Assembly: GCA_043821645.1 (NCBI GenBank)
Contig: JBDRCO010000072.1
Coordinates: 79,962 to 143,961, forward strand
DNA: 64,000 nt
Direction: 5' to 3'
Source of the DNA: Pseudomonadota bacterium
GTDB taxonomy: Bacteria > Myxococcota > JACRCW01 > JAFGSX01
The notes under the pieces were generated by a model. That model did not search any database. It was not told where the DNA came from and was given only the letters and a program-made list of their open reading frames with translations. This document shows, piece after piece, positions 34,573-52,032 of this stretch. Position numbers and translations under genes: made by a program. Position 1 is the stretch's first letter; every line of letters starts with the position of its first letter.

Positions 34573-35889
34573 TCAGCCCGTGATCTCGGCGTTGCCTGGG
34601 CGGATGGCCTGCGGCCCGAAGGGGCAGCGTTGGAGCCGGATGTGCTCCTCGAACTCGTGCCGGAACTTCTTGACGAAGGCTCGGGCCGGGATCGCGGCCG
34701 CGTCACCCAGCGGGCAGATGGTGTTGCCGAGGATGTTGGCGGCGACCTCGTCGAACAGCGTGATGTCCTCGCTGCTTCCGTGGCCCTGCTCGACCCGGGT
34801 CGCCATCTTGGCGATCCAGTGCGTGCCCTCGCGGCAGGGCGTGCACTGCCCGCAGGACTCGTGGGCGTAGAAGCGCATCAGCCGGGCGGTCAGGCGCACC
34901 GTGCAGGTACTCTCGTCGAGGACCGCGGCACAGCCTGTGCCCAGCATGGTGCCCGCCTTCGACATGGCATCAAAAGTGAGAGGCACATCGATCTCGTCTG
35001 GAAGCAGCACCGGTGTCGACGAACCGCCGGGGATCACACCCTTGAGCGCCTTGCCATCGCGCAGACCCCCGCCATGCTCGAAGATCAGTTCCTTGAGCGA
35101 GATGCCCTGGGGGAGTTCCCACAGACCGGGCCTCGCCACGTGGCCAGAGGCGCCGTACAGCTTGGTGCCCACACCGCCGTTGACGCCCAGGCTCTTCCAG
35201 GCGTCGGCACCACGCTCGAGGATGTGCGGCACCTGGGCCAGGGTCTCGACGTTATTGACGATGGTGGGCTGGCCAAACACGCCGACCACTGCGGGAAACG
35301 GAGGCTTGAGACGCGGCTTGCCCGGTTTCCCTTCGATGGACTCGATGAGCGCGGTCTCCTCGCCACAGACGTAAGCGCCTGCACCACGATGCACGAAGAC
35401 GTCGAGGTCGAAACCTTTACCCAGGATGTTCTTGCCCAGATAGTGCGCGTCCACGGCCTCGGCGATGGCCTGCTCCAGGCGTCGGGCGATGGCGTGAAAC
35501 TCGCCGCGAATATAGATGTAGGCCGTATGGGCGCCGATGGCATGGCAGGCGATCGCGATGCCCTCGAGCATCATGTGGGGATCGCGGTCCATGATGTAAC
35601 GATCTTTGTATGTGCCCGGCTCACCCTCGTCAGCGTTGATGCACAGGTAGCGGGGACCGGGCTTGTCCTTGGGCACGAAGCTCCACTTCATGCCCGTCGA
35701 GAAGCCGGCGCCGCCCATGCCGCGCAGTCCTGACTTCTTGACCTCCTCGATGAGGTCGCCCGGAGCCATGGCCAGGGCCTTTGCCAGCGACGTGTAGCCG
35801 CCACCCTGCAGGTAGGTCTTGAGCGTGTGGCTCTCGGGCTTGCCCCAGTTGCGCGACAGCAGTCGCTCGCCCATTGCGTACCTCGTCAT
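34573..35889 (-). CDS. nuoF: NADH-quinone oxidoreductase subunit F (51 kDa flavoprotein)
   Basis: Full-length NuoF-like sequence: YLCINADEGEPGTYKDRYIM, GAGAYVCGEETALIESIEGK, 4Fe-4S ligands ESCGQCTPCREG. Confidence 0.8.
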   Translation of the reverse strand: MTRYAMGERLLSRNWGKPESHTLKTYLQGGGYTSLAKALAMAPGDLIEEVKKSGLRGMGGAGFSTGMKWSFVPKDKPGPRYLCINADEGEPGTYKDRYIMDRDPHMMLEGIAIACHAIGAHTAYIYIRGEFHAIARRLEQAIAEAVDAHYLGKNILGKGFDLDVFVHRGAGAYVCGEETALIESIEGKPGKPRLKPPFPAVVGVFGQPTIVNNVETLAQVPHILERGADAWKSLGVNGGVGTKLYGASGHVARPGLWELPQGISLKELIFEHGGGLRDGKALKGVIPGGSSTPVLLPDEIDVPLTFDAMSKAGTMLGTGCAAVLDESTCTVRLTARLMRFYAHESCGQCTPCREGTHWIAKMATRVEQGHGSSEDITLFDEVAANILGNTICPLGDAAAIPARAFVKKFRHEFEEHIRLQRCPFGPQAIRPGNAEITG

Positions 35890-35916
35890 CGCGGCTGTCG
35901 GTTCGCCCGGTCCGCG

Positions 35917-36384
35917 TCAGTCGGCGGCCCGCAGCACCGCCGCCACCTTCTCAGGGGTCATGTTCTCGTGAAAATCGCCGTCCACCTGCAGGGCAGGCGC
36001 CGTGCCACAGGAGCCCAGGCACTCGACCTCGTGAACGGTGAAACGGCCGTCGGCGGTGGTCTCTCCCGGCTTGACGCCGAGTTCGTGGCACACGCTGTCG
36101 AGCAGTTCCTGACCGCCGGTGAGGTGGCAGGACAGGTTGGTGCAGATCTCGACCAGGTGCTTTCCGACGGGGTGCTTGTGGTACATGGTGTACCAGGTCG
36201 CCACCTCGCGCACCCGGATCTCGTCGAGCTCGAGCAGCGCCGCCACCTCGCGCACGCCCTCGTCGTCGACCAGCTCGCGCTCACGCTGCACCACGTAAAG
36301 CGCGGGCAGGGTGGCTGCCGCCCGATCCGGGTAGCGTGTCTTGAGGGATGCGATCTCCTTCTTGGATGCCTCGCTCAGAGCCAT
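35917..36384 (-). CDS. nuoE: NADH-quinone oxidoreductase subunit E (24 kDa, 2Fe-2S)
   Basis: Thioredoxin-like 2Fe-2S pattern CTNLSCHLTGG ... ECLGSCGTAP; immediately upstream of nuoF on the same strand. Confidence 0.75.
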   Translation of the reverse strand: MALSEASKKEIASLKTRYPDRAAATLPALYVVQRERELVDDEGVREVAALLELDEIRVREVATWYTMYHKHPVGKHLVEICTNLSCHLTGGQELLDSVCHELGVKPGETTADGRFTVHEVECLGSCGTAPALQVDGDFHENMTPEKVAAVLRAAD

Positions 36385-36640: not shown

Positions 36641-37723
36641 TCAGCCGCGACAGTTGTCGATGATAGTGCTGCCATCGGTGAAGACCTCGAGATCGCAGGT
36701 CTCGGCACTGCCCCCGACGACGTAGGTGGTGATGGTGCCCGTGGCATGGCCGCCGAGGTCGTAGTGCAGCTCGCCCTCTTGCTCCTTGGGCTGGGCCGTG
36801 AGCTCGTCGTCGAACACCCAGGTCTCGCGGTAGGCTCCACTGTATTCGATATCCTGATGCACGGTCAGGGTCGAGCCATCGGCGTAGTTCTGCGTGTAGT
36901 CGCCCTGCCCCGTGCCCGCAGGCGAGAAATCGTACTGGCCCTGGTAGTCCGGAAAGACCTCGGTGCCCAGGTCATCGTACCGGAACTCGTACCTCAAGCT
37001 GCCGTCGGGAAGCGCTGTCAGCTTCTCGCGCACACCCCAGCCGTCGGTGGTGCTGTCTATGGTCTGCTGGATGGTGCCATCGTGCTGCTCGACCTGGACC
37101 AGGGTCCAGTCCGGACTGATCTCGGTGCCCAGGTCATCGTAGCTCACGCTGCCATTGAAGCGCCCCTCGTCGTCGCTCAGGCCCTCGACCACGAACACGT
37201 GGTCCGGGTAGGCGTACACTTCGCGCAGTTCGGTCAGACCGTTGGCCAGCTCTCGGTACTCGCCCTCGAAGCCGCCGCCCTGGCTCGAGCTGCCGGTGTA
37301 GACGGTGGCGCCGGGCTCCACGGGATCTGGTCGGAAGTTGAACTCCCAGGTGACCTCACTACCGTTGCGAAGCTGGTACACGGTGCTGTAGTGACCGCTG
37401 CCGTCGCCGTTATCCACGCCCTGGGTCAGGACCCTGGCCACCTCGCCGCCCTCGGCGCAGGAATACGCCACCTCGAAGGCTCCCGTGGCATCGGTGTAGT
37501 GCTCGTAATCGGTGCTCCACTCCTGGCAGCTATCGGACTGGGCCTCACCCTCGGCGAGAGCCTTGGCCTCGATGGACGGGATGCCCCGGGCTCCGGTTTC
37601 ATTCGGGGGGGTCAGGTGTGGCACCACGGTGCCAAAGGCGTGAACCGCAGGCACACCCACGTCACAGCCGCCTGCGGCGACCGCCACCCATGCCAGCACA
37701 ACCGTCACAGACGCAATGCGCAT
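36641..37723 (-). CDS. Hypothetical lipoprotein
   Basis: Lipobox VAVAAGGCD; acidic, Gly/Tyr/Asp-rich beta-type sequence; no known motif recognised. Confidence 0.4.
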   Translation of the reverse strand: MRIASVTVVLAWVAVAAGGCDVGVPAVHAFGTVVPHLTPPNETGARGIPSIEAKALAEGEAQSDSCQEWSTDYEHYTDATGAFEVAYSCAEGGEVARVLTQGVDNGDGSGHYSTVYQLRNGSEVTWEFNFRPDPVEPGATVYTGSSSQGGGFEGEYRELANGLTELREVYAYPDHVFVVEGLSDDEGRFNGSVSYDDLGTEISPDWTLVQVEQHDGTIQQTIDSTTDGWGVREKLTALPDGSLRYEFRYDDLGTEVFPDYQGQYDFSPAGTGQGDYTQNYADGSTLTVHQDIEYSGAYRETWVFDDELTAQPKEQEGELHYDLGGHATGTITTYVVGGSAETCDLEVFTDGSTIIDNCRG

Positions 37724-37969
37724 GTCCCGTCCGTCGCGAACACCTCGACGCGGTACATGGATGCGAAACCCGGGCCATCGGGATCAGGTCCGAAGGCGCA
37801 GAAGATCCGGGCAGATCGAGAGGTGATCCGGATTTCGCCCATGATAAATGCGGCCGATTTCATCCAGAGTGGCTGATATGCTCCAGCAGCCTGGTGGATC
37901 CGAACCTCCCGCTCCTGCCCCGACAAGCGCGGATCAGGTGCGGCGCGGCTCTGCCGGGCGGAACATGGC

Positions 37970-40039
37970 TTGCTTCGCACGGAGGCGATGACGGATCGCA
38001 TGCCAACCCTGTCCTGCATCCCACGCAGCCGCGGCCTCGCCCGCGCCGCAACCCGTGTCGGGCTGGTGCTGGCCTGCGCGGTGTTCGGGGCGCCCGCCGT
38101 GGCGCAGGAGGCCGATCTGTTCGGGCTCGGCGAGGACGAGGGCGACGACGTGGCCAGTGTCCCCATGGTCATCGGTTTGCGCCCCGCCAGCGCCACCGTG
38201 CTCACCGGCGAGGATCTGCTGCGCCAGGGCTACCGCACCCTGGGCGATGCCCTGGCCGATGTGGTGGGCATCGACCTGCAGCGCACCACCCAGGAAAGGC
38301 GCTACGGCCTGCGCGGTATCCCCGACGGCATCCTGCTGGTCATCGACGGAGTGCCGACCCTGGTCGATGGCGAGCGCGACGTGCTCGACGTGGACGAGGG
38401 CCTGGATCTCAACGATGTGGAGCGGGTCGAGGTGATCCGCGGCCCGTCCTCGGCGGTCCACGGCGTGGCCTCGCTCTCCGGTGTGGTGCAGGTGACCACG
38501 CGTCGCCCCGGGCTGACCAGTGCACGGCTCCGCCTGGGCACCACCCACCTGGGCGAGCGCGAGGTCAGCGCCGACGGCACGGTGCGCTATGACGTGGCCG
38601 CCCTGCGCGCGTCGGTGCTCCACCGCGAAGGGCCCAATGGTGTGTGGCGCCTGGAGAACGTCCCCACACGCTTCATCCGGGTGGGGCGCGCGGTGGTTCC
38701 CTCGACCAAGGAGAACACCGAGATCATTCCCCAGGACGACAGCACCACCCACCTCCGGCTGACCGGCAGCATTGGAGCACTGCAGCTCGACGGGCGTTTC
38801 AGCCGCAGCGACGTGCACACTCCCATCTCCAGCTTCAGCCATGGCCTGCTGTCGACGGGCCCCCAGCAGCGGCAGCTGCGCGAACGCCAGCGCATGCAGC
38901 TGAGCTGGAACCGCCACCTGGGCCCACTGTTCGTCGAGACCTCCGCCTACGGCGCGCGCAACCTGCGCACGGACCTGATCGTGCTGTACCCGTCCCGCGG
39001 GCTGTTTCCGACGGGGGGCAGTGTCACCGTCGACAGTGAGGCCGACACTGCGGGCCTGTTGCTCACCGCGGGCGTGCCTGTGCTGCGCGACCACCGGCTG
39101 CTGCTGACCTGCTTCGGCGACCTGACCCGACAGTGGGCCGTGACCCGCGCGGTGGACCCCGAAGAGGAACGCGTGTACCCGCGACTGGTCGAGTTCGACG
39201 AGCTCACCGGCACGGCCACCGCAGCCTTCGAGTACCAGGGTGACTTCGGAGCGGGCTGGCATCTGACGGCGGGCGCCGCGGTGGAGTGGCGCACCGGCTA
39301 TGGCGCAGCCCTGGTGCCCCGGGCTTCCCTGAGCTACCTGCCGCTGTCCTGGCTCGCCCTGCGCGCATCGTACGCCGAGGGCTCGCGCACCCCGGACCGC
39401 TACGACCTGGCCTTGCTCACCCAGGCCGTGATCGCTGGCCGCGCCATCGGCGCCGGTGTCAATCCCGACCTGCAGCCCGAGCACGCGCGCAGCCTCGAGC
39501 TGGCGTTGCGTCTGGAGCCGTCGGCTCAGCTTCACGCCGAGCTTGACCTGTTTGCCTCACGCCACGAGAACGCCATCGAGCCAGAGATCGTGGGTGCGCG
39601 CATGGTGCCGCAGAACCTGCCTCCCCGGCTGGTCCTCGGCGGCGAGCTGTCGACGGAGATCGAGGCCATCCCGACCCTGCTGCACCTGGGTGCGGGTGTG
39701 GCTCTGGCACGGACCGTCGATGGACCCGCGCTGGAAAACCGCTTGCTGCTGGTGACCGCCACGGCCGAGGTGACACCCCTGACCGGTATCGCGCTGGGTG
39801 CGCGCGGCCGCGCCGGCTGGCGAGAGCAGAGCGATGCCGCATCGGGAACCTCGGGGAACGCCGAGATCTTTGGCTCGTACCGCGCCCTCGACGAGCGGCT
39901 GAGCTTCTCGCTGGTGCTGCGCAACGCCATCGATGGGCAGGACGATTCCCCGGACGTCGCCGTGCTCACCGGGACCTCTGACGTGGCCATCCCCAGCCGC
40001 GGCCGCGTGCTGTTCGTCGCCATCGAGGGCCGCCTGTGA
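37970..40039 (+). CDS. TonB-dependent outer-membrane receptor
   Basis: Signal peptide (VGLVLACAVFGAPAVAQ), plug-domain motifs (VIGLRPASATVLTGEDL, ERVEVIRGPSSAVHGVASLSGVVQVTT), long beta-barrel. Start may be 37988 or 38000. Confidence 0.65.
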   Translation: MLRTEAMTDRMPTLSCIPRSRGLARAATRVGLVLACAVFGAPAVAQEADLFGLGEDEGDDVASVPMVIGLRPASATVLTGEDLLRQGYRTLGDALADVVGIDLQRTTQERRYGLRGIPDGILLVIDGVPTLVDGERDVLDVDEGLDLNDVERVEVIRGPSSAVHGVASLSGVVQVTTRRPGLTSARLRLGTTHLGEREVSADGTVRYDVAALRASVLHREGPNGVWRLENVPTRFIRVGRAVVPSTKENTEIIPQDDSTTHLRLTGSIGALQLDGRFSRSDVHTPISSFSHGLLSTGPQQRQLRERQRMQLSWNRHLGPLFVETSAYGARNLRTDLIVLYPSRGLFPTGGSVTVDSEADTAGLLLTAGVPVLRDHRLLLTCFGDLTRQWAVTRAVDPEEERVYPRLVEFDELTGTATAAFEYQGDFGAGWHLTAGAAVEWRTGYGAALVPRASLSYLPLSWLALRASYAEGSRTPDRYDLALLTQAVIAGRAIGAGVNPDLQPEHARSLELALRLEPSAQLHAELDLFASRHENAIEPEIVGARMVPQNLPPRLVLGGELSTEIEAIPTLLHLGAGVALARTVDGPALENRLLLVTATAEVTPLTGIALGARGRAGWREQSDAASGTSGNAEIFGSYRALDERLSFSLVLRNAIDGQDDSPDVAVLTGTSDVAIPSRGRVLFVAIEGRL

Positions 40040-40911
40040 TGCTGCCCGCCCTGGCCACCGCGCTGTGCCTGGTCTTCGCTGCCGACGTCACCCCGGCCTC
40101 GCAGCCAGCCCCTGCCAGGGGCCCCGTGGTGGTGCTCGCGGATCGCGACACCCGCGCCTACAAGGAGGCGCGCGCAGGCATCGAGGCCGCCGCCGGGCGC
40201 CCGGTGCTGCTGGTGAACAGCAGCGAGACGGAGCGCTGGCATCAGCTCCAGCGCAGCCACGGCGATGCGACCTGGCTCGCCCTGGGACCCCGCGCCACCG
40301 CCCTGCTGAAGAGTTCACCCCACCCGCGCCGGGCCGCGCTGCTGGTGCAGCAGCAGGAGATACCGCCTGGTCTTGCCGCGGTCCCCCTCGAGCTGCCCTA
40401 CGCGCAGCAGGTCGCCTGGCTCAAGACCGGATTTCCGGGAAGGTTGCGCCTGGTGGTGCTGCGCCAGCCCGGTGGTCCGGTCGACGACGAGGCGCTGCGC
40501 CAGGCCGCCCAGGCGGCGGAACTGGATCTGGTCCTGGTCGACGTGCGCCGCAGCGGAGATGCGGTCCCAGCCCTGGAGGGTGCGCTGCGCGATCGTCGCC
40601 ACAGCTCGCTGCTGTGGGTCCTGCCGGATCCCGTTGCGGTGAGCACGGACACAGTGGCGCCGCTGGTGCAGGCCGCGCTCGCAGCGCGCGTACCCGTGGT
40701 CGGTTTCAGCGACTACTTCCTCCGCGTGGGCGCGCTGGGCGCGGTGGTGGTCGACTACCGTGCCGTGGGCTCCCAGGCGTACGGGATGGCGCGGGATCTG
40801 GCGACGAGCACGCAGGCTGCCGCGTCGGCGCACCTGGAGGTGGATGGCCGGCTCGCCGAGCGCCTTGGCATCGCCGTGGACAGTGGTCCCGGTGTCCAGG
40901 TGCGGAGATGA
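40036..40911 (+). CDS. Periplasmic substrate-binding-like protein
   Basis: Signal peptide MMLPALATALCLVFAA; alpha/beta pattern resembling periplasmic binding proteins that accompany two-component sensors; overlaps neighbours by 4 nt on both sides. Confidence 0.4.
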   Translation: MMLPALATALCLVFAADVTPASQPAPARGPVVVLADRDTRAYKEARAGIEAAAGRPVLLVNSSETERWHQLQRSHGDATWLALGPRATALLKSSPHPRRAALLVQQQEIPPGLAAVPLELPYAQQVAWLKTGFPGRLRLVVLRQPGGPVDDEALRQAAQAAELDLVLVDVRRSGDAVPALEGALRDRRHSSLLWVLPDPVAVSTDTVAPLVQAALAARVPVVGFSDYFLRVGALGAVVVDYRAVGSQAYGMARDLATSTQAAASAHLEVDGRLAERLGIAVDSGPGVQVRR

Positions 40912-42440
40912 ACACACCTCGTCGCTGGCGTCTGGGCCTGCGCGAACGGCTGGTGGCCGCGGTGCTGGGCGTGCTCACGGCACTGCTCGCCATCACCGCC
41001 GCGCTCGTCGTCATGCGCTCCGAGCTGGCCCTGGTCGAGGCCCAGCAGACGCGCTTCGCCGCACTCACGCGTCAGCTCGCGGACTCGCTGCGCTACGCCG
41101 TGCTGGCGCAGAGTCCCGCGCTCATGGAGCCCTCCCTCGACGTGTTCGCGCGCAGCCCCGACCTGGTGCAGGTGGAGGTGCGCGACGAGCGGCGTGCCTT
41201 GCTGGCGGTGAAGAGTGGCCCCCAGGGCCCCGTGGGTGATGGCGTCGAGCGCAGTGACGTGGTGACCGTGGAAGTTCCCGTCAACACCCGCGAGCAGGCG
41301 CCCGGCGATGAAGACGATGAGCTCGCGATCTTTGGTCTGGGCAGCGAGGGCACGCGCCTGGTGGGCTACGTGCAGGCGGTGTTCTCCACCGAGGCCACGG
41401 CACGCATCCAGGACAGGCTGCGGCGCGAGATCCTGGCGGCCTTCACGATCCTGGGCGGGCTGGGATTGCTCGCCGTGTTTGGGCTGGCGTCGTCCGTGGT
41501 GCGACGCACGCGCTTCCTGGCGCAGGCGGCGGCTCGGGTGGCTGAGGGCGACCTCGGGGTGCGCGTCGAGGACCCGGCAAGCGACGAGCTGGCAGCTCTG
41601 GCGCAGGACTTCAACGCCATGACCACCGCCCTGGCCGAGCAGCACGTCGCCCTCGACCAGGCCGCCTCGCAGCTCGCCGAACAGGAAGCGCTGAGTGCCA
41701 TTGGACGTGCCACCGCAGTCATCGCCCACGAGCTCAAGAACCCCCTGGGCATCCTGCTCGGAGCTGCCCAGATCGCGGCCAATGACGAGCGTCCCGAGAC
41801 CGCGCGGCGCAAGGCTGCGGGCATCATCGTCGAGGAGGTGCAGCGGCTCGAGCGAACCCTCAACGAGCTGCTTCACTACGCCCGTCCGCGTCCGGCCAGC
41901 CGCATGCCGGTCGACGTCCTGGAGCTGTGCCGGCGCAGCGTGCAGCGCGTGCGTTCGCCGGGCGGCCCCGCCGAGGGCGCGTCCATCGACGTGAGCGGCG
42001 AGAGCTGCACGGTGCTCGCCGACGAGCAGCAGCTGGCGCAGATCCTGCTCAACTTGCTGACCAACGCCGCCCAGGCCGGTGCCAAGCACATCGCGATCGC
42101 CGTGCAGCGCGCGGCAAGCCGCGTGCGTGTCGAGGTGCAGGACGACGGACCCGGGATCGCCCCGAGTGTGCAGGATCAGCTGTTCCGACCCTTCGTCACC
42201 ACCAAGCAGCGGGGAGCGGGCCTGGGCCTGGCTGGCTCGCGGCGCATGGCACGGGAGAACGCAGGGGACCTGCGACACGAGCCGGGCGAACAGGGCGCGC
42301 GCTTCGTGCTGGAACTCGAGATGGCCGCTCCAGGGAGCCCGCCACGACCGTCGGAACCACACACAGAGGCGTCAGAGCCAGGGCTCGACACCGCGGGGGC
42401 GGCGCACGAACGCCCTGACAAGAAAGAGGTCCAGGGATGA
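40908..42440 (+). CDS. Sensor histidine kinase (two TM, HAMP, HisKA, HATPase)
   Basis: Track ORF 39933..42440; start MNTPRRWRL (ATG 40908, ATGA overlap); H-box TAVIAHELKNPLGIL, N-box LLNLLTNAAQAG, G-boxes DDGPGI / GAGLGLAGS. Confidence 0.65.
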   Translation: MNTPRRWRLGLRERLVAAVLGVLTALLAITAALVVMRSELALVEAQQTRFAALTRQLADSLRYAVLAQSPALMEPSLDVFARSPDLVQVEVRDERRALLAVKSGPQGPVGDGVERSDVVTVEVPVNTREQAPGDEDDELAIFGLGSEGTRLVGYVQAVFSTEATARIQDRLRREILAAFTILGGLGLLAVFGLASSVVRRTRFLAQAAARVAEGDLGVRVEDPASDELAALAQDFNAMTTALAEQHVALDQAASQLAEQEALSAIGRATAVIAHELKNPLGILLGAAQIAANDERPETARRKAAGIIVEEVQRLERTLNELLHYARPRPASRMPVDVLELCRRSVQRVRSPGGPAEGASIDVSGESCTVLADEQQLAQILLNLLTNAAQAGAKHIAIAVQRAASRVRVEVQDDGPGIAPSVQDQLFRPFVTTKQRGAGLGLAGSRRMARENAGDLRHEPGEQGARFVLELEMAAPGSPPRPSEPHTEASEPGLDTAGAAHERPDKKEVQG

Positions 42441-43828
42441 CACACCGCGTGCTGCTGGTCGAGGACGAGCAGAACTACCGGCAGGTGATCGCCATGATGA
42501 TCGCCGATCTCGATGTGACGCTCATCGAGGCGGGCGATGGCCGCGAGGCTCTGGAGAAGCTGGACAGTCACGAGGTCGACCTCATCATCACCGACCTCAA
42601 CATGCCGCGCATGGACGGCATGGCCTTGCTGGCAGAGCTCAAGACCCGCCAGCTCAACCTGCCTGTCGTCGTCATCACGGCCTACGGCACGGTGGACTCG
42701 GCGGTGGAGGCCATGCGTCTGGGAGCCATCGACTACCTGCAAAAACCCTTCGAAGAAGCGCGCCTGCGCCTGACCTTGCAACGTGTGCTGCAGGTCAGTG
42801 ACCTGATGGCCGAGAACAGGCGGCTGCGCGACGCCGTGGAAAAGAAGTTCGACTTCTCACAGATCATCGGTGAGTCGGCGGCCATGGTCGCGGCGCTGAG
42901 GGTGGCCGGCCAGGTTGCGGGCACCGACGCCACGGTGCTGGTCGAAGGCGAGAGCGGCACTGGCAAGGAACTGGTGGCCCGGGCCATTCATTTCAACAGC
43001 CGGCGGGCCCGCAAACCCTTCGTGGCCGTGAACTGCGCGGCCCTGCCCGATACCTTGCTCGAGGCGGAACTCTTCGGCAGCGAGGTTGGCGCCTACACCG
43101 GAGCCACGCGCCGCCGCCGCGGCCGGGTCGAGCTGGCCCAGGGGGGAACCCTGTTCCTCGACGAGATAGGCGATATGCCGGCCATGCTGCAGGCCAAGAT
43201 CCTGCGCCTGATCCAGGAGAAGACCTACACACCGCTGGGCGGCGAGCAGGAAGCCCGCGCCGACGTGCGCTTCGTGCTGGCGACCCACCGCGACCTCAAA
43301 TCCCTGGTGGCCGAGGGCCGCTTTCGCGAGGACCTGTACTACCGGGTGAGCGGACTGCCCGTGCGTCTACCGCCCTTGAGGCAACGCGGTGACGACGTGG
43401 TGTTGCTCGCCGAGGCCCTGATCAAGCAAGCCTGCCAGAACCTGGACCGCCCTCCCCTGGAGCTGACCCCGGCCGCGCGCGATGCCCTGCGAGGCTACGG
43501 TTTCCCGGGCAACGTGCGCGAGCTGGCCAATCTGGTGGAGCGCGCCACCTTGCTGAGCGAAGGCACCACCATCGACGCGACGGACCTGGAACTCGACGAC
43601 AACCCCGCCTCGGCACCGGCAGCGGGATCGGTCCCCGGAGCCTCGACCACGGCGGTCAGCGGTGTGTTCACCCTGCCCGAGCAGGGCGTGTCTCTCGAGG
43701 AACTCGAGCGCAGCATGGTCAAGCAAGCCCTCGATCGCGCTGCGGGCAACAAGAGCCGCGCGGCCAAGTTGCTGGGCCTGTCCCGCGCCACCCTGCGCTA
43801 CCGCATCGAGAAGTTCGGGCTCGAGTGA
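42437..43828 (+). CDS. Sigma-54-dependent response regulator (NtrC family: receiver + AAA+ + HTH)
   Basis: Receiver ([14 protein letters not shown]), Walker A GESGTGKE, sigma-54 interaction motif [13 protein letters not shown], arginine finger region, C-terminal Fis-type HTH ([24 protein letters not shown]). Confidence 0.8.
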
Positions 43829-43896
43829 CACAGCCGGGCGCCCTGAGCCGCCGGCCGCATCCATGCTAAGCTGCACACTCCGCCCCGGAGTGCCAC

Positions 43897-46026
43897 ATGC
43901 AGGGAGTCCCTTCGAGACGATCCGCCATCGCCTGCTCGCTGGTCCTCGTGCTGGGAGCTGCGCTCCTGGCGTGCCCGCAACCCGCAGGGACCTGCAGCAC
44001 CCAGGCGCACTGTGCCACCGGCGAGCTCTGCATCGAGGGCCGGTGCCGGCAGGCCTGTGCCTCCAGTGCCGTGGATTGCCCATCTGACCAACAGTGCCAC
44101 GACGGTGTGTGCCTCCCCCTCGGCAACGCCTGTTCCAGCCCCGCCGACTGCCTAGGTATCGAGGCCTGTGTCCAGGGACTCTGCCATCTGCTGTGCAGCA
44201 CCAGCGTGCCCTGCCCGGGATCACAGCAGTGCATGCAAGGGTCCTGCATCGCGGCCACCGATGCCGCGACCCTGGACGGCTCTGGCAGCGACCAGCGCGC
44301 CCGGGACAGCGTGCAGCAAGATTCGGCTGCGGCGTCGGACCTTGGCATGTCCCCGGATGGACCGGTGTCCCGGGATGCCATGAGCGGCCAGGACAGGGCC
44401 GATGCGTCGGCCGTTGACATCGTTCGCAACGCTGACGCGACAGTCTTGTCCGATCACCCGACGGCAAGCGATGTTCCTGCCATCGTCGATGGTTCGACTG
44501 TCATCTCCGATGGCATGACTGTCCTGTCCGATGCCGGAACCGCCGACCTGGACCTGTGCAGCGATTCGGTATGTCCGGCGCCTGGTCAGTGTCACAACGT
44601 CGACGGAGGTGGGCACCAGTGTGCCTGCGGCGACGAGGTGTGTGCCAGCGGTCTGCTGTGCGTGGCCGACCGGGGCGACGCCGGCGTCGGGGACGCAGCA
44701 CCGGTGTGTTGCGCGGACGGCCTGACCAACTGCAGCAGCACCTGCGTCGACACCGCGCAGGACACGCGCCACTGCGGCGCGTGCGGCCACAGCTGTGCCT
44801 TCGGCGAGAGCTGCAGCAACGGATCGTGTGTGTGCGGTGCCACCCCCGGCTGCAACGCTGGCAGCCAGGATTGCTGTGGTGGCGTCTGCCGCGATGTGCT
44901 GACGGATCCCCTGCACTGCGGGCCCGTGGGCACAGGAATAGGCTGCTCGGCAAACTGTGTCTCGATGTCCGGGGTGGACTGCAGCCGCGCCTGCAGTCAG
45001 GCCCTGGTGACGCTGTCGGGCACCGTGTCCGGCCCCTTTGCCTTTCCGCAATATGACGTGGTGATCACCGACCTCGCCGTGACGCCCTTCGACGGGATCA
45101 ACGCGGGTGTCCTGCTGGTGACCGGCGCCAACATTCAGGTCACGGGGACCCTCGACGCCACGGGGGCCGGCTACGGCGGTGGCGGCGGTGGCGGGGGTGG
45201 CGCCGGCGGGGCGGGAGGCTACGATCAGGACCAGCTGGGTGGCGAGGGAGGCAACGCCGTCGCCGGAAGCATCGCGGGCATGGCGGGAACGGGGTGCGTG
45301 AGCGACCCGGGAAGCAGTCCTGACTGGACCTGCGAGATCCTGGGGAGTCGCCCCGGCGGCAATGGCGGCAAGGGTGGAGGCAGCTTCGGTGGGTCGGGGG
45401 GTACAGGCACCACGGCGGCCGGCGCCGGCGGCTATCTGGCCACCGGGGTCAATGGCGACAGCACGACCGACAGCCAGGTGTGGATGGGGGGTGGCGGTGG
45501 CGGCGGACGCGGCGGACGCGGCGCCGACGGCTGGAACGACTCCGGCACCTACTGCGGCGGTGGCGGTGGGGGCGGCGCCGGCGCCGGCTACCGAGGTGGC
45601 GGGGCCATCCTCCTGGTGAGTTCGGGCGAACTGGTGGTGACAGGCAGCATCCTCACCCGTGCGCAGGTGAGCTCCGTCGGCGCCAGCGGCGGCAACGGGC
45701 ACGCCTCGATGGGCTGGGAGGGTGGGGACGGTGGCCGTGGCGGCCACGCGCCCCAGGGTGGTGGCGAGGGCGGGACCGGTGGCATGGGTTGGTCGGCCTG
45801 TAGCGGTGCGGCGGCACATAGCGGCACGACCGGTGCCGCGGGCGGCGGCGGTGCCGGTGGCGGCATCCTGCTGCAAGCTGACGTCGTGAACATCGACGGG
45901 GTCCTCGACGCCCGGGGAACGGGGGACCAGCTCGCCAACAGCGGAACCATCAAGATCTTCTGGCACAACAGCTATCTGAACAACGGGGACCCGGCCACCA
46001 TTCGGGCCTTGATCGAGCAGCGGTAG
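43897..46026 (+). CDS. Cys-rich lipoprotein with Gly-rich C-terminal half
   Basis: Lipobox LVLGAALLAC; N-terminal 350 aa with about 50 Cys in EGF/defensin-like CxxxC spacing; C-terminal 300 aa dominated by GGGG/GAGG runs. Confidence 0.5.
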   Translation: MQGVPSRRSAIACSLVLVLGAALLACPQPAGTCSTQAHCATGELCIEGRCRQACASSAVDCPSDQQCHDGVCLPLGNACSSPADCLGIEACVQGLCHLLCSTSVPCPGSQQCMQGSCIAATDAATLDGSGSDQRARDSVQQDSAAASDLGMSPDGPVSRDAMSGQDRADASAVDIVRNADATVLSDHPTASDVPAIVDGSTVISDGMTVLSDAGTADLDLCSDSVCPAPGQCHNVDGGGHQCACGDEVCASGLLCVADRGDAGVGDAAPVCCADGLTNCSSTCVDTAQDTRHCGACGHSCAFGESCSNGSCVCGATPGCNAGSQDCCGGVCRDVLTDPLHCGPVGTGIGCSANCVSMSGVDCSRACSQALVTLSGTVSGPFAFPQYDVVITDLAVTPFDGINAGVLLVTGANIQVTGTLDATGAGYGGGGGGGGGAGGAGGYDQDQLGGEGGNAVAGSIAGMAGTGCVSDPGSSPDWTCEILGSRPGGNGGKGGGSFGGSGGTGTTAAGAGGYLATGVNGDSTTDSQVWMGGGGGGGRGGRGADGWNDSGTYCGGGGGGGAGAGYRGGGAILLVSSGELVVTGSILTRAQVSSVGASGGNGHASMGWEGGDGGRGGHAPQGGGEGGTGGMGWSACSGAAAHSGTTGAAGGGGAGGGILLQADVVNIDGVLDARGTGDQLANSGTIKIFWHNSYLNNGDPATIRALIEQR

Positions 46027-46055
46027 CCCCTCGCTGTGACCCGCGAGAAATCCGT

Positions 46056-47966
46056 TCAGGCTCCTGCCTCCGGACGCTCGCTGCGCGGTCGACGACGCAG
46101 GCCTGCCAGCGCCAGCGCCAGCAGTCCCGATGGCGCCGAGGGAAAGCCCTCGCGGCAGCTACAGCCGCGGGCGACCACCGTCGAGAGTTTCTGACTGTCC
46201 GTCGTGACAGGGGCGTCCGCGATCGCACCTCCCTCGACGACGCTGGCCGCGTCCTCGCGGCTTCCATCAACCGCGGCAACATCCGCCCCCATGGCCTGAT
46301 CCGCGGCGAGCAGATCGGCCCGGGCAGTGTCGAGAGGGGAGGCGTCGCCGACGACCTGTGCATCACCGGCCATGGCTGCATCACCTGCGGGCGAAGCATC
46401 GGCAAGCGGTGCACTGTCCACCCTGGCGACGTCGGCCGCGGTCGCAGCATCGGACAGGGCTCCCGAGTCCGCCACCGTTCCTGCATCCGTTCCTGCGTCC
46501 CCGGACAGACCGGCATCCTCGACCGCCTGTGCATCGAGGTTAGAAGTCGCGTCTCGCAGCGGCCCCGCGTCTGTCCCGGGTGGCAGGTACTCGTAGGCGC
46601 CCAGGTCCTCGACGCCCTCCTGCGGCCGCGGCACGCGGTCCCTGTCGTCGACGGGGGCCAGGACGGACGAGCCTACATTGCGCGCCGGGCTGCTGGGGAT
46701 CAGGTGCAGGTCCCCGCCCAGGTAGTTGACGAAGTACGCGTCGACGTCGCTGATCAGAGCGTTGTGGTCCTCGGTCACATCCTGGCCGGCGGCGATGCTG
46801 AGCGCGGTGGTCAGGTTGTTCCGCACCACGCAGCCCGTGCTCGCCGTGCCGTCCTTGTGCAGGCCGATGCTGATCCAGGGCGGGCCTGGGGTCGTGTCGT
46901 TGAGGTCGAGCACGGTGTTGTTGACGATGCGGCTGTTGCGGGCACCGAGCAGGGTGATGCCATGCCAGTGATCGGTGAGGATGACATTGTTCTCGATCAC
47001 CCAGTCGACGAAGAAGCCGTCGAAGCAGCCTATGCCCTGCAGGGTGCCGCGAAAGGGCTGGTTGGGGTCCGTGTAGTTGATGATGGTATTTCCGCGCAGG
47101 GTGATGCCGACGACCTCGCCAGTGCCGACGCCACCAGGGCCCACGGACCAGGACTGAAAGCCGTCGTCGTGGTTGGCATTGACGTCGTAGCAGTTCTTGA
47201 CCGTGTTGTACTGAAAGGTGTCGTGGTCGCCCAGGCCGCGCAGGCCGTCACCGGCGAAGTTCTCGATCACGTTACCCTCGACCAGGCCTCGCGCGCCGCT
47301 CACGGTGATGCCGAAATTGACGTTGAGCAGGTGATTGTCCCGCGCCACGCAGTCGTCGCCGGACACGCTGATGCCATTGCAGGCCAGGTTGTTCCAGTCG
47401 TCTAGGGTCCAGGCCGAGGTGTCGCGCACGCTGAACAGCTCGCAGCCTTCGATGACGACATCGTGGGCGGGCCCGCTGTAGTTGTGCGAGGTCACTTCGA
47501 CCAGGTGCACGGTGGTGTAGCTGGCGTCGTGACTGGGGCTGATGGAGACGCCGCGCAGGAGCCAGTTGGCCGAGGCCACGATGCGGGCGCGCCTGAGCTG
47601 CGGGCTATGCCCGGGTTCGGCAGCGATGGTGACCAGGGCGCTGTTGTACATGCGAAGCAGGTCGAGCTCGCCGTGGTAGCCCGAGCGCAGCCAGATCGTG
47701 TCGCCGGCCTTCACCGGTGCGCCGACGTTGCGCGGCACCAGGGTCGAGCTCGCCGTGTAGGGCAAGGCATCCCAGGTCCGTGTCTCGACAAGGTCGTCGG
47801 CGATCACCTCCTGCAGGGTGCGCCAGGGGTGCGCCGCGCTGCCATCGTTGCCAGGATCGCCAGTGGCAGGGTCGACGTAGAACTCCTCGGCGCGTGCGGC
47901 TGGAACCAGGAGCAGGACCACACCGAGCAGAACGATCGCGGATGGCCGGGTTCCGGAGCAGCGCAT
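46056..47966 (-). CDS. Right-handed beta-helix (pectate-lyase-fold) protein with MYXO-CTERM sorting tag
   Basis: Signal peptide (start MRCSGTRPSAIVLLGVVLLLVPAARA); repeated NxxG/IENN beta-helix rungs (GNVIENFAGDG, NTVKNCYDVNANHDDG, IENNVILTDHWHGIT); C-terminus ARGCSCREGFPSAPSGLLALALAGLRRRP. Confidence 0.6.
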   Translation of the reverse strand: MRCSGTRPSAIVLLGVVLLLVPAARAEEFYVDPATGDPGNDGSAAHPWRTLQEVIADDLVETRTWDALPYTASSTLVPRNVGAPVKAGDTIWLRSGYHGELDLLRMYNSALVTIAAEPGHSPQLRRARIVASANWLLRGVSISPSHDASYTTVHLVEVTSHNYSGPAHDVVIEGCELFSVRDTSAWTLDDWNNLACNGISVSGDDCVARDNHLLNVNFGITVSGARGLVEGNVIENFAGDGLRGLGDHDTFQYNTVKNCYDVNANHDDGFQSWSVGPGGVGTGEVVGITLRGNTIINYTDPNQPFRGTLQGIGCFDGFFVDWVIENNVILTDHWHGITLLGARNSRIVNNTVLDLNDTTPGPPWISIGLHKDGTASTGCVVRNNLTTALSIAAGQDVTEDHNALISDVDAYFVNYLGGDLHLIPSSPARNVGSSVLAPVDDRDRVPRPQEGVEDLGAYEYLPPGTDAGPLRDATSNLDAQAVEDAGLSGDAGTDAGTVADSGALSDAATAADVARVDSAPLADASPAGDAAMAGDAQVVGDASPLDTARADLLAADQAMGADVAAVDGSREDAASVVEGGAIADAPVTTDSQKLSTVVARGCSCREGFPSAPSGLLALALAGLRRRPRSERPEAGA

Positions 47967-48038
47967 GGGGCCTCCGTGGCACACAAGGCCCGAGTATAAC
48001 GTTCTGTCGACGGTTGGGCGACGCGGCAAGGCCCGTGC

Positions 48039-49589
48039 TCAGCCCCGATACTCCCAGTGCCAGTGCTCCGACGGGATGCGCGAGAAGCCGAAGCGGTGGC
48101 CGTTGCGGGCCAGCCAGTTGTAGACCGCGCCCGTGCCCTGGCTGCGGCTCACGCCCTGGGTGTTCAGGTCCAGGGCAATGCCACTTTGGTGGTTGGAGTA
48201 ACCCGGAGGTGCTGCCGGGTTGAAACCGGGCAGGCGGTTGACCCAGCCGTTGTACAGGTACTGCTGCTCGGACATGGTCCTGAAGCCCGAGATGAGCGCG
48301 ATGTTCACGCCGTCCTTGCGCGCGGCGGCCTTCATTTTCAGGTAGGCGCGCGCCGTGTCCTTCTCGACCAGCTCGCCCTCGATGGGCACGACCTTGATGT
48401 TCCGGGACACGCCATTGACGTAGCCGGTGGCCGCACGCACCGGCAAGCCGTGAATGGGATCGCGCTGCGCCTTCTCGACCCGCTTGAGCGCCTTGAGCGT
48501 GGCCTGGCCCACGCCGTTGCCCTTGCCGTCGAGGTGGTGCTTCTGCCGGAAGCGATCCAGGGCGCGCTGGGTGCCCTCGGTGTACAGGCCGTCGACCTTG
48601 CCCGGATGGAAGCCGACCTTCTTAAGCAGCTGCTCGGTGCGCTTGACCGCGGCCGAGTGCTCGCCGATGCGCTGGTGTGGCGAGGTGGCGCTCTTCGCTT
48701 CCAGCGTCGCCCTGGACAGGCGATTCCAGGTGGCGGCGTCGACGCGGCCGCTGACCTCGAGACCGGTCTTGCGCTGGAACTCCTTGACCATGCCCTCGGT
48801 GCGGTCGTCAAACATTCCATCCTTGCGCTGCGGATCAAAACCCGCGGCCTTGAGGTGACCCTGCACCACCTGCACGGCGCGGCTCTTGTCACCGCGACCG
48901 AGGCCACCGCTGCCGTCGGCGTGCTGCTGGGCGGCGGCCCGCTCGACGATGCGATCGCTGCGGCGGCGCGCGTCCGAGGGCTTGACCCGCGCGCGATGGG
49001 GCGCGTGGTTGAGCGCTGCAGTCTCGTGCCGCAACACCGAACGACTGTTATTGCCGAGCAGGCCGCTCTTGGCTTGCCGCCTGAGCTCGGGCTGGTCGCG
49101 CTTGAAGGCCTTGACTGCGTCGGCGGTCTGGCCGTCGAACACGCCGTCGACCTTGCCCACGTCGTAACCCAAGCGGCGCATGCGTTGCTCGAGCTTCTCG
49201 ATGTGCTCGCCCTTCTGGCCACGCCCCACCTTGCCATTGTGCTCGCGCTTGGCGGTGCGCGCGCGCTCGTTGACCTTGCCCAGCTTGTTCAGGGTCGCAC
49301 TGGTGATGCGACCGTCTGCCGTCAGGCCCATGGAGGTCTGGAACTCCTTGAGCGCGTCCTGGGTCAAGCGCGTGTACTTTCCATCGACCTTGCCTGGCTT
49401 GAATCCCGCGCCCTTGAGCAGGCGCTCGGCTTTGCGCACGGTGGCGGGCTCGTACACATCTGCGGGATTCGTCTCGGCCGGGGGTGTGGGTTCGGTGGGC
49501 GGGGCCGCTGCTGGAGGCTGGCTGCTCGCTGCCGCAGGCTGGCGTGCCGCGCGGATGCCGCGAGTAGTCGAAGAAGTGGTGGCCACCAT
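48039..49589 (-). CDS. Peptidoglycan-binding-domain protein with C-terminal M15-type (VanY-like) peptidase domain
   Basis: Four repeats of GKVDGxxxxxTxxAxKxFQ (PG_binding-like); C-terminal SGFRTMSEQQYLY ... GYSNHQSGIALDL ... SEHWHWEY zinc-peptidase motifs. Confidence 0.6.
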   Translation of the reverse strand: MVATTSSTTRGIRAARQPAAASSQPPAAAPPTEPTPPAETNPADVYEPATVRKAERLLKGAGFKPGKVDGKYTRLTQDALKEFQTSMGLTADGRITSATLNKLGKVNERARTAKREHNGKVGRGQKGEHIEKLEQRMRRLGYDVGKVDGVFDGQTADAVKAFKRDQPELRRQAKSGLLGNNSRSVLRHETAALNHAPHRARVKPSDARRRSDRIVERAAAQQHADGSGGLGRGDKSRAVQVVQGHLKAAGFDPQRKDGMFDDRTEGMVKEFQRKTGLEVSGRVDAATWNRLSRATLEAKSATSPHQRIGEHSAAVKRTEQLLKKVGFHPGKVDGLYTEGTQRALDRFRQKHHLDGKGNGVGQATLKALKRVEKAQRDPIHGLPVRAATGYVNGVSRNIKVVPIEGELVEKDTARAYLKMKAAARKDGVNIALISGFRTMSEQQYLYNGWVNRLPGFNPAAPPGYSNHQSGIALDLNTQGVSRSQGTGAVYNWLARNGHRFGFSRIPSEHWHWEYRG

Positions 49590-49726
49590 GGCGGACTCCT
49601 TGTTCGAGGACGTCCGGGGTATCGGTGGGTCTATGTGCGCAGGTGTGGGATTCGGGGTCGGTCAACGGGTGGTCCGCCACATGACCGATGCTTCCGTGAT
49701 CGCCCAGATATCCGCGAATTTCTGGC

Positions 49727-50584
49727 TCAATCGAAATCCAGCCAAAGCACGGTGTCGGCGTCGCGGACCACCGGGCCAGGGACAAAGGACTGGCGGTGGC
49801 GGACCACCTTCGAAATGTGGACCTCATCGATCTCGCCCAAGAAGGGCGTGCGCAGACCCGTGTCCCCCTGGGGGCTGCGACACAACCACAGGCTGTCCAC
49901 GGCATGGGCCACCCCCTCTCCTGCAGGCCACTGGCCACCCGCGGTGGCGCGCTCGCCGTCGATGTACAGGTTGGTGCGCACCACACCGTCGGGCTGGGTC
50001 TCCACCGACGCGGCCAGGTGATGCCAGGTGCCGGGCTCGACCGGGTGCAGCCACCCCATGCCCCGTCCGCCGTTGACTTGACCCTCGCGCAGACGGTGGC
50101 TCTTGAAGCTCACGGTGCGGTAGGTGCGCCCCACGCCGTCACCCAGCTCGACGTGAAAGTCGTCCTCGCGGGTGTCGCGGCGTGGCGCCACCAGCAGGTC
50201 CACCGGCCGCGAGCCCAGGTCGCCCACGGCAGCGGGCCTGAACCAGAACTCCACGCTCAGGGCCTGGGTACCGTCAAGGGCAGCGTCGAGATCCAGCTGC
50301 ATGCCGTCGATGCCATCGCAGCGGAGCGACTGACCCGAGGGCGCCCGCGGCGGCGACCCAGGCAGCACCAGCGCCTCGGCCACGGCGACCTTAGGCGCCC
50401 CTGACCCAACGCGACGCCCGGATAGTCGCGGCGCCTCAGCGCGCTGCAGGGCGCCGGTGACGACGGGAGCGGGGAGATCCTGCGCGGGCCCGGGCGGCAA
50501 CCAGCCCTGCTCGCACTGCTCGCCACTGCCGGCGAGGGCCATGGTCAGCACGAGCACAAGGCGAACCATCGATGCCGATTTCAT
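49727..50584 (-). CDS. Secreted protein with LamG/concanavalin-A-like domain
   Basis: Signal peptide MKSASMVRLVLVLTMALAGS; beta-sandwich-type sequence (ALSVEFWFRP, WHHLAASV, LYIDGE) typical of LamG-like lectin fold. Confidence 0.4.
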   Translation of the reverse strand: MKSASMVRLVLVLTMALAGSGEQCEQGWLPPGPAQDLPAPVVTGALQRAEAPRLSGRRVGSGAPKVAVAEALVLPGSPPRAPSGQSLRCDGIDGMQLDLDAALDGTQALSVEFWFRPAAVGDLGSRPVDLLVAPRRDTREDDFHVELGDGVGRTYRTVSFKSHRLREGQVNGGRGMGWLHPVEPGTWHHLAASVETQPDGVVRTNLYIDGERATAGGQWPAGEGVAHAVDSLWLCRSPQGDTGLRTPFLGEIDEVHISKVVRHRQSFVPGPVVRDADTVLWLDFD

Positions 50585-50685
50585 GACCGCACTCCTGTCT
50601 GCTGGGCAGCGTCCTCAACGCGCGATCTCCGGCCACGATCCAGCGCGCGAACAAAAAAATTGTGGACCGAGGGTGTGGTCAAAGG

Positions 50686-50703
50686 TGCGTAAGCTTTTAC
50701 GCA
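50686..50703. promoter_or_regulatory. Perfect 7-bp inverted repeat (candidate operator) in divergent promoter region
   Basis: tgcgtaa-gctt-ttacgca at 50686-50703, in the 258-bp gap between divergent genes (LamG-like minus, lipid kinase plus), next to an A7 tract and an unusually AT-rich stretch (50741-50800). Confidence 0.3.
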
Positions 50704-50842
50704 GTGGCGTGTAAACGGCTTCCCGATCCAGCGCTGGGCGCGACCCGGCACCATTTTGTGTTCTTAACTAATTGTTATTAAACGTGAATACAGTACGTCG
50801 CGCCGCCAAATGGTGGTCCAGGTCTTGCGAGCAAACGCGCAC

Positions 50843-51922
50843 ATGTCCATGAACACCTATCTCAATCCGACCCAGCTGGCCGCGGATCGCACAGCGGTCA
50901 TGCTCAACATCAACGCCAAGAAGGTCACCTCGCGGGTGGTGGATCGCGTGGCCCAGGTGGTGCCGCACACCGACCTGTTCCTGTCGCGCTCCTTTGACGA
51001 TGCTCGCAAGCAGGTCGAGACCGTGGTGGCGCGAGGCTACGGCCGCGTGCTCGCCGGCGGTGGCGACGGTACCCTGGTGACGCTGATCAATCTCATCGAT
51101 CGCACCATTCGACGCTGCCTGGATCGCGGCCAGCAGGTACCCTTTCCCGAGATGGGCATGTTGCGCCTGGGCACGGGCAACGCCGTGGCCTCGGTGCTCG
51201 GTGCGGGTTCTCTCATTCCCGACGTGAAGAGGCACCTGCGCGGAGAGGATCAGCTCCGCGTGCAGCTCGACATGTTGCGCGTCGGCGATCAGGACACGCT
51301 GTGCCCCTTTGCCGGCATTGGCTACGACGGCGAGATCCTGGGCGACTACAACTGGGTCAAGGCGCATGCCCAGAATCCCGTGGCCAAGGCCCTGATGCAG
51401 ACCTCACTCGGCTACCTGGCCGGACTGTTCCTGCGTACCTTGCCGCGCAAGCTGGCCGAGTTCGGGCGCAACCTGCCCGAGATCGAGGTGCGCGCGCGCG
51501 GCCGCGCCTTCCGCGTCGACCACCAGGCCAACGATGCCCTGGTGCGAGCCGATGACGAGCTGCTGTACCGCGGTCCCGTGGGCTTCGCGGGCGCTGGCAC
51601 GGTGCCGGTGTACGGCTTCAACTTCCGGGTGTTCCCCTTTGCCGGTCGCGTGCCTGGCCTGATGCACCTGCGCGTCACCGACGTCAGTGCGCTCACCGCC
51701 GTGGCCAACCTGGGCGGCCTGTGGCGCGGTACCTGGCGGCATCCGCAGCTGCACGATTTCCTGGTCGAGGGTGTCGAGATCGTGGGCGATCGCCCCCTGC
51801 CCTACCAGCTCGGTGGCGACGCGGCTGGTGCGCGGGCGAACCTCGACCTACGCGTGGCCGAACAGCCCCTGGCCATGGCCGCCCTGGCCCCGCCCCGGCT
51901 GGCACTGCCCGCAGCAGCCTGA
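50843..51922 (+). CDS. Diacylglycerol-kinase-like lipid kinase (DAGK catalytic domain family)
   Basis: Track ORF 50810..51922; GGGDGTL signature (VLAGGGDGTLVTLIN) and surrounding fold typical of DAGK_cat / YegS-type lipid kinases. Confidence 0.65.
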   Translation: MSMNTYLNPTQLAADRTAVMLNINAKKVTSRVVDRVAQVVPHTDLFLSRSFDDARKQVETVVARGYGRVLAGGGDGTLVTLINLIDRTIRRCLDRGQQVPFPEMGMLRLGTGNAVASVLGAGSLIPDVKRHLRGEDQLRVQLDMLRVGDQDTLCPFAGIGYDGEILGDYNWVKAHAQNPVAKALMQTSLGYLAGLFLRTLPRKLAEFGRNLPEIEVRARGRAFRVDHQANDALVRADDELLYRGPVGFAGAGTVPVYGFNFRVFPFAGRVPGLMHLRVTDVSALTAVANLGGLWRGTWRHPQLHDFLVEGVEIVGDRPLPYQLGGDAAGARANLDLRVAEQPLAMAALAPPRLALPAAA

Positions 51923-52032
51923 ACCCTCCGCCAGATTCGCTTTCTTCATGATAAGAAAGGTACGCGCCGTCGCGTCCCGCCCACAGCACCTGCACGCCAG
52001 CAGGAGTCCGGGCGGCAGAGGGGAGCCAACGC

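Follow-up and report, generated by a model that had tools for sequence, protein, structure and literature searches.

We analyzed a 64-kb stretch of DNA (all of it, which we call the window) that matches a contig labelled Pseudomonadota bacterium at NCBI, from a metagenome-assembled genome (MAG). Within it, an operon of four genes encodes a TonB-dependent receptor, a periplasmic binding protein, a histidine kinase, and an NtrC-type enhancer-binding protein (EBP; here, the activator). Next to the receptor gene and divergent from it lies a gene for a 360-amino-acid lipoprotein, which we will term up360. We propose, with moderate confidence, that these five genes form a conserved, lineage-restricted envelope-sensing module and that the activator drives both its own operon and up360. 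The proposal comes from comparing the window with related loci, in which the gene order, a pair of sites that resemble sigma-54 promoters, and a dyad between them recur.

The related loci are from MAGs labelled Deltaproteobacteria or Myxococcota, and scans of genome and metagenome collections gave few additional loci. The region upstream of the operon is covered in 11 loci (the window, L001, L004, L008, L011, L012, L013, L014, L020, L022, and L023). The contigs of L014 and L022 reach the start of the kinase gene and end after it.

The four-gene operon and the divergent lipoprotein gene

An earlier reading of this DNA, made from the sequence alone (the sequence-only reading), identified genes for the receptor, the binding protein, the kinase, and the activator and noticed that they are linked by 4-nt overlaps. 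The open reading frames (ORFs) are as it placed them, the Pfam domains agree, and the overlaps are GTGA at 40036–40039, ATGA at 40908–40911, and ATGA at 42437–42440. The same order, with the genes overlapping or closely abutting, is present in full in L001, L002, L004, L007, L008, and L020 and was detected by tblastn in L011–L013; it recurs wherever the contig extends. Because the same gene order recurs in related loci, we take the four genes to be a real sensory operon, conserved in a rare uncultured lineage, rather than ORFs that line up by chance. The gene 3′ of the activator varies: it is an S49 peptidase with Yip1 in L001 and L002, a diacylglycerol kinase (DAGK)-like kinase in L007, and a convergent gene in L020, while small ORFs follow in L004 and L008.

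The receptor (37988–40039, plus strand; the longest ORF begins at 37970) has a signal peptide, an acidic D-x-F/L-G extension, a plug (Pfam Plug, 2e-15), and a barrel (TonB_dep_Rec_b-barrel, 8e-20). Pfam finds only the plug and the barrel, with no STN signalling domain, and no NCBIfam equivalog matches the receptor at its cutoff. When the N-termini of the orthologues are compared, the extension is an acidic low-complexity stretch of 15–45 amino acids. Across the receptors, acidic D-x-F/L-G repeats precede a putative TonB box (in the window, about 38105–38149, receptor residues 40–54).

The binding protein (40036–40911, plus strand) is secreted and has two lobes, and it falls within the PF04392 clade of type I periplasmic binding proteins (PBPs). 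Its Pfam match to ABC_sub_bind (PF04392) is weak, but the two-lobe type I fold is confident, it belongs to the PF04392 family, and five of its arginines are invariant. No genes for an ABC permease or ATPase are among the annotated neighbors in the window or in any orthologous locus, so the binding protein is an orphan with no transporter partner nearby. Its gene overlaps the kinase gene and has no transporter genes of its own, as expected if the kinase depends on a solute-binding protein.

The histidine kinase (40908–42440, plus strand) has a transmembrane helix, a periplasmic domain of about 135 amino acids, a second transmembrane helix, and HAMP, HisKA, and HATPase_c domains. The motif PGD(D/E)xx(E/D)LxxFG is invariant in the periplasmic domain in all 10 of the orthologues compared; in the window it lies at about 41292–41345 (residues ~129–146). 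The window has the motif pair IFGLGSE and LFGLGED, and the corresponding peptides are APGDEDDELAIFGLGSEG in the kinase and QEADLFGLGEDEGDD in the receptor.

The last gene of the operon (42437–43828, plus strand) encodes a sigma-54 enhancer-binding regulator, as had been proposed, with Response_reg (4e-30), Sigma54_activat (5e-68), an AAA lid, and HTH_8 (3e-16). It is a member of the NtrC family, with the Walker A motif GESGTGKE, an intact GAFTGA loop (GAYTGA), and a Fis-type helix-turn-helix (HTH) that is nearly invariant across the orthologues. Otherwise it is a generic NtrC/AtoC-like protein, and no NCBIfam equivalog matches it at the cutoff. Its gene is overlapped by 4 nt by the HAMP-HisKA-HATPase_c gene, as expected for a cognate kinase, and it is the sole EBP encoded in the window. 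A second histidine kinase gene and a receiver-domain gene (about 15517–16875, plus strand) gave weak tblastn matches to the kinase and the activator of L001 (30–34% identity).

up360 (36641–37723, minus strand) encodes a signal peptide, a lipobox with Cys20, a disordered linker of about 45 amino acids, and about 24 antiparallel strands. By tblastn, it adjoins the receptor gene divergently in all 11 loci that cover the upstream region. (The copy in L022 is shorter, 235 amino acids, and we take it to be a member from its position and a 235-amino-acid family match.) Cys20 never varies: the boxes of four homologues read AGGC, LAGC, LLAC, and ASAC, so up360 has the hallmark of a bacterial lipoprotein. 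It also has YDDLGTE-like repeats and two conserved pairs of cysteines. In an AlphaFold2 model, the pLDDT is about 80 over residues 66–360. No Pfam or NCBIfam family matches up360, and a search of 1.84 billion proteins gave only 44 representatives. On its other side, up360 is adjoined by nuoF-like (Complex1_51K) and nuoE-like (2Fe-2S thioredoxin-like) genes (34573–36384, minus strand); these neighbors are also found in L001 and are missing in more distant loci.

Candidate promoters and a dyad between the divergent genes

The divergent intergenic region (37724–37987, about 260 bp) has GG-N10-GC sites facing each way with a dyad between them. We searched for sigma-54 sites with two position weight matrices (PWMs). 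One was derived from the GG-N10-GC consensus (TGGCACG-N4-TTGCW). The other was an empirical PWM from 51 curated sites of E. coli and Desulfomicrobium (PMC12316311, S2 Table), and its ranks were taken over 128,000 window positions. The sequence-only reading would have been weakened by the lack of a sigma-54 promoter anywhere in the locus; we found conserved sigma-54-type sites, but upstream of the operon.

The candidate sigma-54 promoter of up360 (TGGCCCGGGTTTCGCA; 37762–37777, minus strand) has its GC 40 nt before the ATG at 37723. It ranks second among all window positions with the empirical PWM. The site differs by one base in L023, and at the equivalent spot L008, L011, L012, L013, and L022 have TGGCAC-N5-T(T/C)GC, with scores of 13.9–17.9. 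Given its rank and its conservation, this site is quite likely to be a sigma-54 promoter.

The candidate sigma-54 promoter of the operon (CGGAACATGGCTTGCT; 37959–37974, plus strand) has its GC 15 nt before the ATG at 37988. The plus-strand site is the top intergenic match in 10 of the 11 loci and the second in the eleventh, and the distance from its GC to the receptor start is 14–19 nt throughout. As a control, we looked at 63 other called gene starts of these loci; only one (the DAGK gene of L007, discussed below) has a site scoring at least 7.5 at that distance. In the window, the shuffle P value for the site is 0.009. From the conserved position, we think it reasonably probable that this site is a sigma-54 promoter as well, with less assurance than for up360.

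The candidate activator-binding dyad, or upstream activating sequence, lies at 37868–37887 (AGTGGCTGATATGCTCCAGC) and is a degenerate copy of GGTGGC-N8-GCCACC (written out, GGTGGCTGAGGTCAGCCACC). The dyad is 20 bp long, its spacer is always 8, and it lies between the two promoters. It matches the consensus perfectly in L004, L011, L012, and L014, with one mismatch in L008, L013, and L022, and with three in the window, L001, L023, and L020. In 9 of the 11 loci its center is 81–110 bp upstream of the GG of the plus-strand site. Dyads with at most one mismatch occur about twice per spacer length in the 64-kb window, or about 0.01 expected per intergenic region. From the nearly invariant HTH of the activator, we infer that the same dyad is recognized throughout the orthologues and that the window's copy is a weaker version.

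These sites also bear on where the receptor begins. The sequence-only reading took TTG 37970, the start of the longest ORF, as the start codon, but this TTG coincides with the TTG of the predicted −12 element and so lies inside it. ATG 37988 is the likelier start. The GC content at third codon positions (GC3) of the intervening codons is 0.69, compared to 0.84 in the first 20 codons after the ATG or GTG (P = 0.01). Because GC3 is lower there, this argues that 37973–37987 is non-coding.

Tandem direct repeats (TGGCTGAAGA, CAGCTGGGTTGAC, and CATCCGGCTTGT, three copies of each) are present in the intergenic regions of some orthologues (L004 7713–7790, L014 3366–3410, and L008 1035–1065) and are absent from the window. 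The window's best match to the consensus PWM lies elsewhere (TGGAAAACCGCTTGCT; 39732–39747, plus strand; score 14.7), inside the receptor gene and 304 nt before the start of the binding protein. It is conserved in no orthologue, so we rejected it as a chance match.

A proposed signalling path, and alternatives

We propose that the receptor would bring a ligand into the periplasm, where the binding protein would bind it and modulate the kinase through its periplasmic domain (by analogy with AioX/AioS, TorT/TorS, and LuxP/LuxQ). The kinase, from its domain content, would phosphorylate the activator, which would then bind the intergenic dyad and fire two back-to-back sigma-54 promoters. One of these would express up360 and the other would express the operon itself, which would give positive feedback.

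Several observations weigh against this proposal. The window's plus-strand site scores poorly by the empirical PWM (4.3, rank 90), and if it is a promoter, then the leader would be just 3–7 nt, which is unusually short. The −12 triplet T(T/G)G is in frame with the receptor ORF in 8 of the 11 loci, which permits another interpretation, with GGA as a ribosome-binding site and the triplet as a start codon. On the minus strand, L004 and L014 share a variant (TGGCAC-N5-GTGAA) that lacks the GC, and the window's dyad carries its three mismatches. The 64-kb window contains no ORF with an RpoN box. The fold of up360 has no convincing structural relative. Finally, the host is uncultured, and the promoter and mechanism claims are all computational.

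The in-frame triplet leads to a fairly unlikely alternative, which is that only up360 depends on sigma-54: GGAAC-N5-TTGC would be a ribosome-binding site followed by a TTG or GTG start, and the operon would have another promoter. This would avoid both the short leader and the low empirical score, and in the eight loci no stop codon intervenes and the extra codons would give the signal peptide a short, Arg-rich n-region. Also, a gene caller picked this triplet as the start in L023. However, the triplet is unusable in L008 (out of frame), L020 (an in-frame TAG), and L013 (CTG), where the distance of the motif is kept nonetheless, and L008 and L020 have the strongest plus-strand scores. The GG and the GC are invariant, and the triplet's first base is not; the spacing from GG to GC is exactly 10 nt in all 11 loci; and the drop in GC3 does not suit coding sequence. 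A more sweeping alternative is that the sigma-54-like sites reflect chance or some other conservation, with the four genes expressed constitutively and the activator's targets elsewhere. EBPs in myxobacteria-like genomes often work at distant loci. The window, whose DNA is 68% GC, has 45 GG-N10-GC matches with scores of at least 9, and the shuffle P values for single loci are only 0.0005–0.26. But the sites keep their positions in 11 loci even though the rest of the intergenic DNA aligns poorly, the dyad is at a fixed distance, and neither the control of other gene starts nor the rank of the minus-strand site fits with chance, so we regard this explanation as improbable.

The sequence-only reading suggested a different output: the gene just downstream of the activator, which encodes a Cys- and Gly-rich secreted protein (43897–46026, plus strand), seemed to be the activator's natural target. 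If it were the dedicated target, then a sigma-54 promoter should lie in or near the gap between them (43829–43896), which is 68 nt long as that reading gave it. The gene adjoins that of the activator and shares its strand, the gap is short and has no terminator that we could find, and it contains a weak GG-N10-GC (cGGCCGcatccaTGCT, 43852–43867). However, the gap's best scores with the two PWMs (5.0 and 2.3) are at background, being equalled or exceeded by 346 window positions (at ≥5.0) and 173 window positions (at ≥2.3), which agrees with the earlier failure to find a convincing promoter there by eye. Nor is there a dyad of the conserved type nearby, an unusual RNA structure in the gap (fold z = −0.3), or an Rfam family. 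None of the orthologous loci has the gene, it lacks a full-length homologue, and it sits in an inserted block (described below), all of which makes it a very improbable target.

Another alternative keeps the genes and changes the signal. The binding protein might act like YfiR, docking on the ...DLxxFG loop of the kinase or on the D-x-F-G extension of the receptor and so relaying whether the receptor is occupied. The invariant motif in the kinase's periplasmic domain and the acidic repeats ahead of the receptor's putative TonB box would suit such a switch, and so might the five invariant arginines. The within-locus similarity of the receptor and kinase motifs is above that of composition shuffles (0 of 100) and marginally above that of cross-locus pairs (P = 0.05). 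Solved members of the PF04392 clade bind aromatic amino acids (L-Trp, L-Tyr, and L-Phe; PMC10443332), and YfiR, whose PBP-like fold is akin to that of PF04392 structures, acts on the periplasmic domain of an inner-membrane sensor to control it (PMC4655355). But the statistics are marginal and the segments are of low complexity, and a full two-lobe PBP fits a binder of small ligands, so we consider the chances of a partner switch to be slim. It is similarly a long shot that the locus represents a new form of TonB-dependent cell-surface signalling, with a sigma-54 activator at its end in place of an extracytoplasmic function (ECF) sigma factor. The PF04392-type protein would then be a shuttle that recognizes an acidic ...D-L-x-x-F-G motif present on both the N-terminal extension of the receptor and the sensor loop of the kinase, and the activity of the kinase would be set by receptor occupancy and not by free ligand in the periplasm.

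The proposed ligand-sensing path can be compared to several known systems. In the arsenite-sensing system AioX-AioS-AioR, as here, the gene for an orphan periplasmic solute-binding protein lies beside those for a histidine kinase and for a sigma-54 activator of the NtrC type. The output of AioXSR is a sigma-54 promoter of a neighboring gene set. Those targets are the arsenite oxidase genes, whereas the candidates here are the lipoprotein gene and the operon itself; also, AioX belongs to Phosphonate-bd (PF12974) and not to the PF04392 clade, and there is no TonB-dependent receptor in that operon. AioX stimulates the kinase AioS, which is a precedent for a kinase that depends on a binding protein (PMC8050422).

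In PfeS/PfeR-PfeA and PirS/PirR-PirA of Pseudomonas aeruginosa, two-component genes adjoin the gene for a TonB-dependent receptor and there is positive feedback. PfeS/PfeR needs a ligand that the receptor imports and that is sensed in the periplasm, and it induces the receptor gene (PMC8001512). In contrast to our locus, PfeR and PirR are OmpR-type regulators with sigma-70 promoters, the ligand is a catecholate siderophore, and there is no accessory binding protein or divergent lipoprotein. FecA-FecR-FecI has an STN signalling domain and a pair of anti-sigma factor and ECF sigma factor. The likeness is that the receptor is encoded with regulators of its own expression, but our receptor is not a transducer of that kind: it has no STN domain, and its neighbors are a kinase and an EBP, not an anti-sigma/ECF pair. 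YfiB-YfiR-YfiN also combines a periplasmic PBP-like protein, an inner-membrane sensor, and an outer-membrane partner. However, YfiR (DUF4154) has a single lobe, the system acts through a diguanylate cyclase and not a kinase/EBP pair, and YfiB is an OmpA/Pal-like lipoprotein, not a TonB-dependent receptor.

Our literature searches found no described system with a TonB-dependent receptor, a PF04392 protein, a kinase, and an EBP. Thus, each component is of a known kind, and the combination is one for which we found no description. If the architecture is right, then in a small Myxococcota-like lineage a sigma-54 two-component system has been merged with a TonB-dependent importer and an orphan binding protein to give a self-activating unit, which includes a co-regulated lipoprotein of unfamiliar fold. 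The locus also offers a bidirectional sigma-54 control region and a candidate DNA site for an uncharacterized NtrC-like activator. The practical impact is limited, as the components are ordinary and the host is not in culture. There is a caution here as well: adjacency alone suggested the wrong target for the activator, and the longest-ORF start fell inside a likely promoter.

The inserted block and the genes beyond it

The Cys/Gly-rich gene lies outside of the conserved module. Its product is a near-orphan of 709 amino acids, and its composition is as the sequence-only reading described it: 44 of the 48 cysteines are in residues 1–380 and 106 of the 151 glycines are in residues 381–709. The same reading called it a lipoprotein, and here the signal peptide, ending in LLAC, stands, while the lipobox is plausible and not canonical, and there is a single sequence to judge from. 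We found no tblastn match to the protein in any orthologous locus. Among 5.8 billion proteins, there were its own record and four matches that cover 14–19% of it, with no full-length homologue.

The four partial matches run through a Cys-rich domain that is shared with Stig1 and MXAN_6577-like proteins, which residues 269–373 match (NF041328, E = 7e-11; Stig1, E = 3e-4). This is the protein's one likeness to MXAN_6577-like/Stig1 proteins, and it is a local domain resemblance only, as the score of 42.2 bits is well below the NCBIfam cutoff of 100 for MXAN_6577-like proteins. The N-terminal Cys repeats and the entire Gly-rich C-terminal half have no relatives in these searches. Given its absence from the orthologous loci, the gene is best described as an unrelated lineage-specific insertion and not as a dedicated target or a conserved member of a regulon. 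At most, it may be reached by read-through from the operon, which is possible because no terminator was found.

An antisense sigma-54-like site inside this gene (GATGGCAGGAACATCGCTT; 44466–44484, minus strand) is the second-best minus-strand match with the empirical PWM (score 11.7). This site and a further one at 44122–44137 are probably chance matches in coding DNA.

The gene is the first of a block of about 6.8 kb (43829–50660) that separates the EBP gene from its ancestral downstream neighbors, as seen from synteny with L001, L002, and L007. We consider 43829 to about 50660 to be lineage-specific because the genes that neighbor the EBP in those three loci sit beyond it in the window: the S49/Yip1 pair is at 55798–57425, and the orthologue of the DAGK-like kinase is at about 50843–51922, with 63% identity to that of L007. 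We saw no signs of mobile insertion: 43829–50660 is not flanked by any direct or inverted repeat of at least 10 nt, and the GC3 of its codons is like that of the window.

The block codes for secreted proteins only. After the Cys/Gly-rich gene (plus strand), the other three genes are on the minus strand. The first (46056–48029) encodes a secreted right-handed beta-helix protein of 657 amino acids with an Asp/Ala-rich low-complexity region. Its tail (GCSCREGF...LLALALAGLRRRPR) resembles a sorting signal of the MYXO-CTERM type, and no NCBIfam match to the tail was reported. The next (48039–49589) has four PG_binding_1 repeats and a VanY D-Ala-D-Ala carboxypeptidase domain. The last (49727–50584) encodes a lectin-like protein with Laminin_G_3.

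Just beyond the block, the control region of the DAGK-like kinase gene (50686–50829, plus strand) contains a perfect palindrome (TGCGTAAGCTTTTACGCA, 50686–50703), an A/T-rich, IHF-like block (50764–50783), and a sigma-54-type site (TGGTCCAGGTCTTGCG, 50814–50829) that lies 15 nt before the ATG at 50843. This region aligns with that of L007 (4990–5157), where the site scores 15.4. In L007, the DAGK gene directly follows the EBP gene, and the palindrome overlaps the activator's stop codon. By this comparison, the DAGK-like kinase is probably the ancestral downstream neighbor with a sigma-54 promoter. In the orthologues, the gaps before the S49 peptidase and the small ORFs have sigma-54 scores at background, and the DAGK gene of L007 is the exception. 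The DAGK palindrome is not the same as the dyad between the divergent genes, and it has no further copy in the window or in the compared loci.

The DAGK-like kinase begins a run of lipid-related genes (50810–55725), in which the ORF calls overlap and are uncertain. Besides the DAGK_cat kinase, the run includes a phosphatidate phosphatase APP1-like domain (52761–54683) and a choline/ethanolamine kinase (54583–55725).

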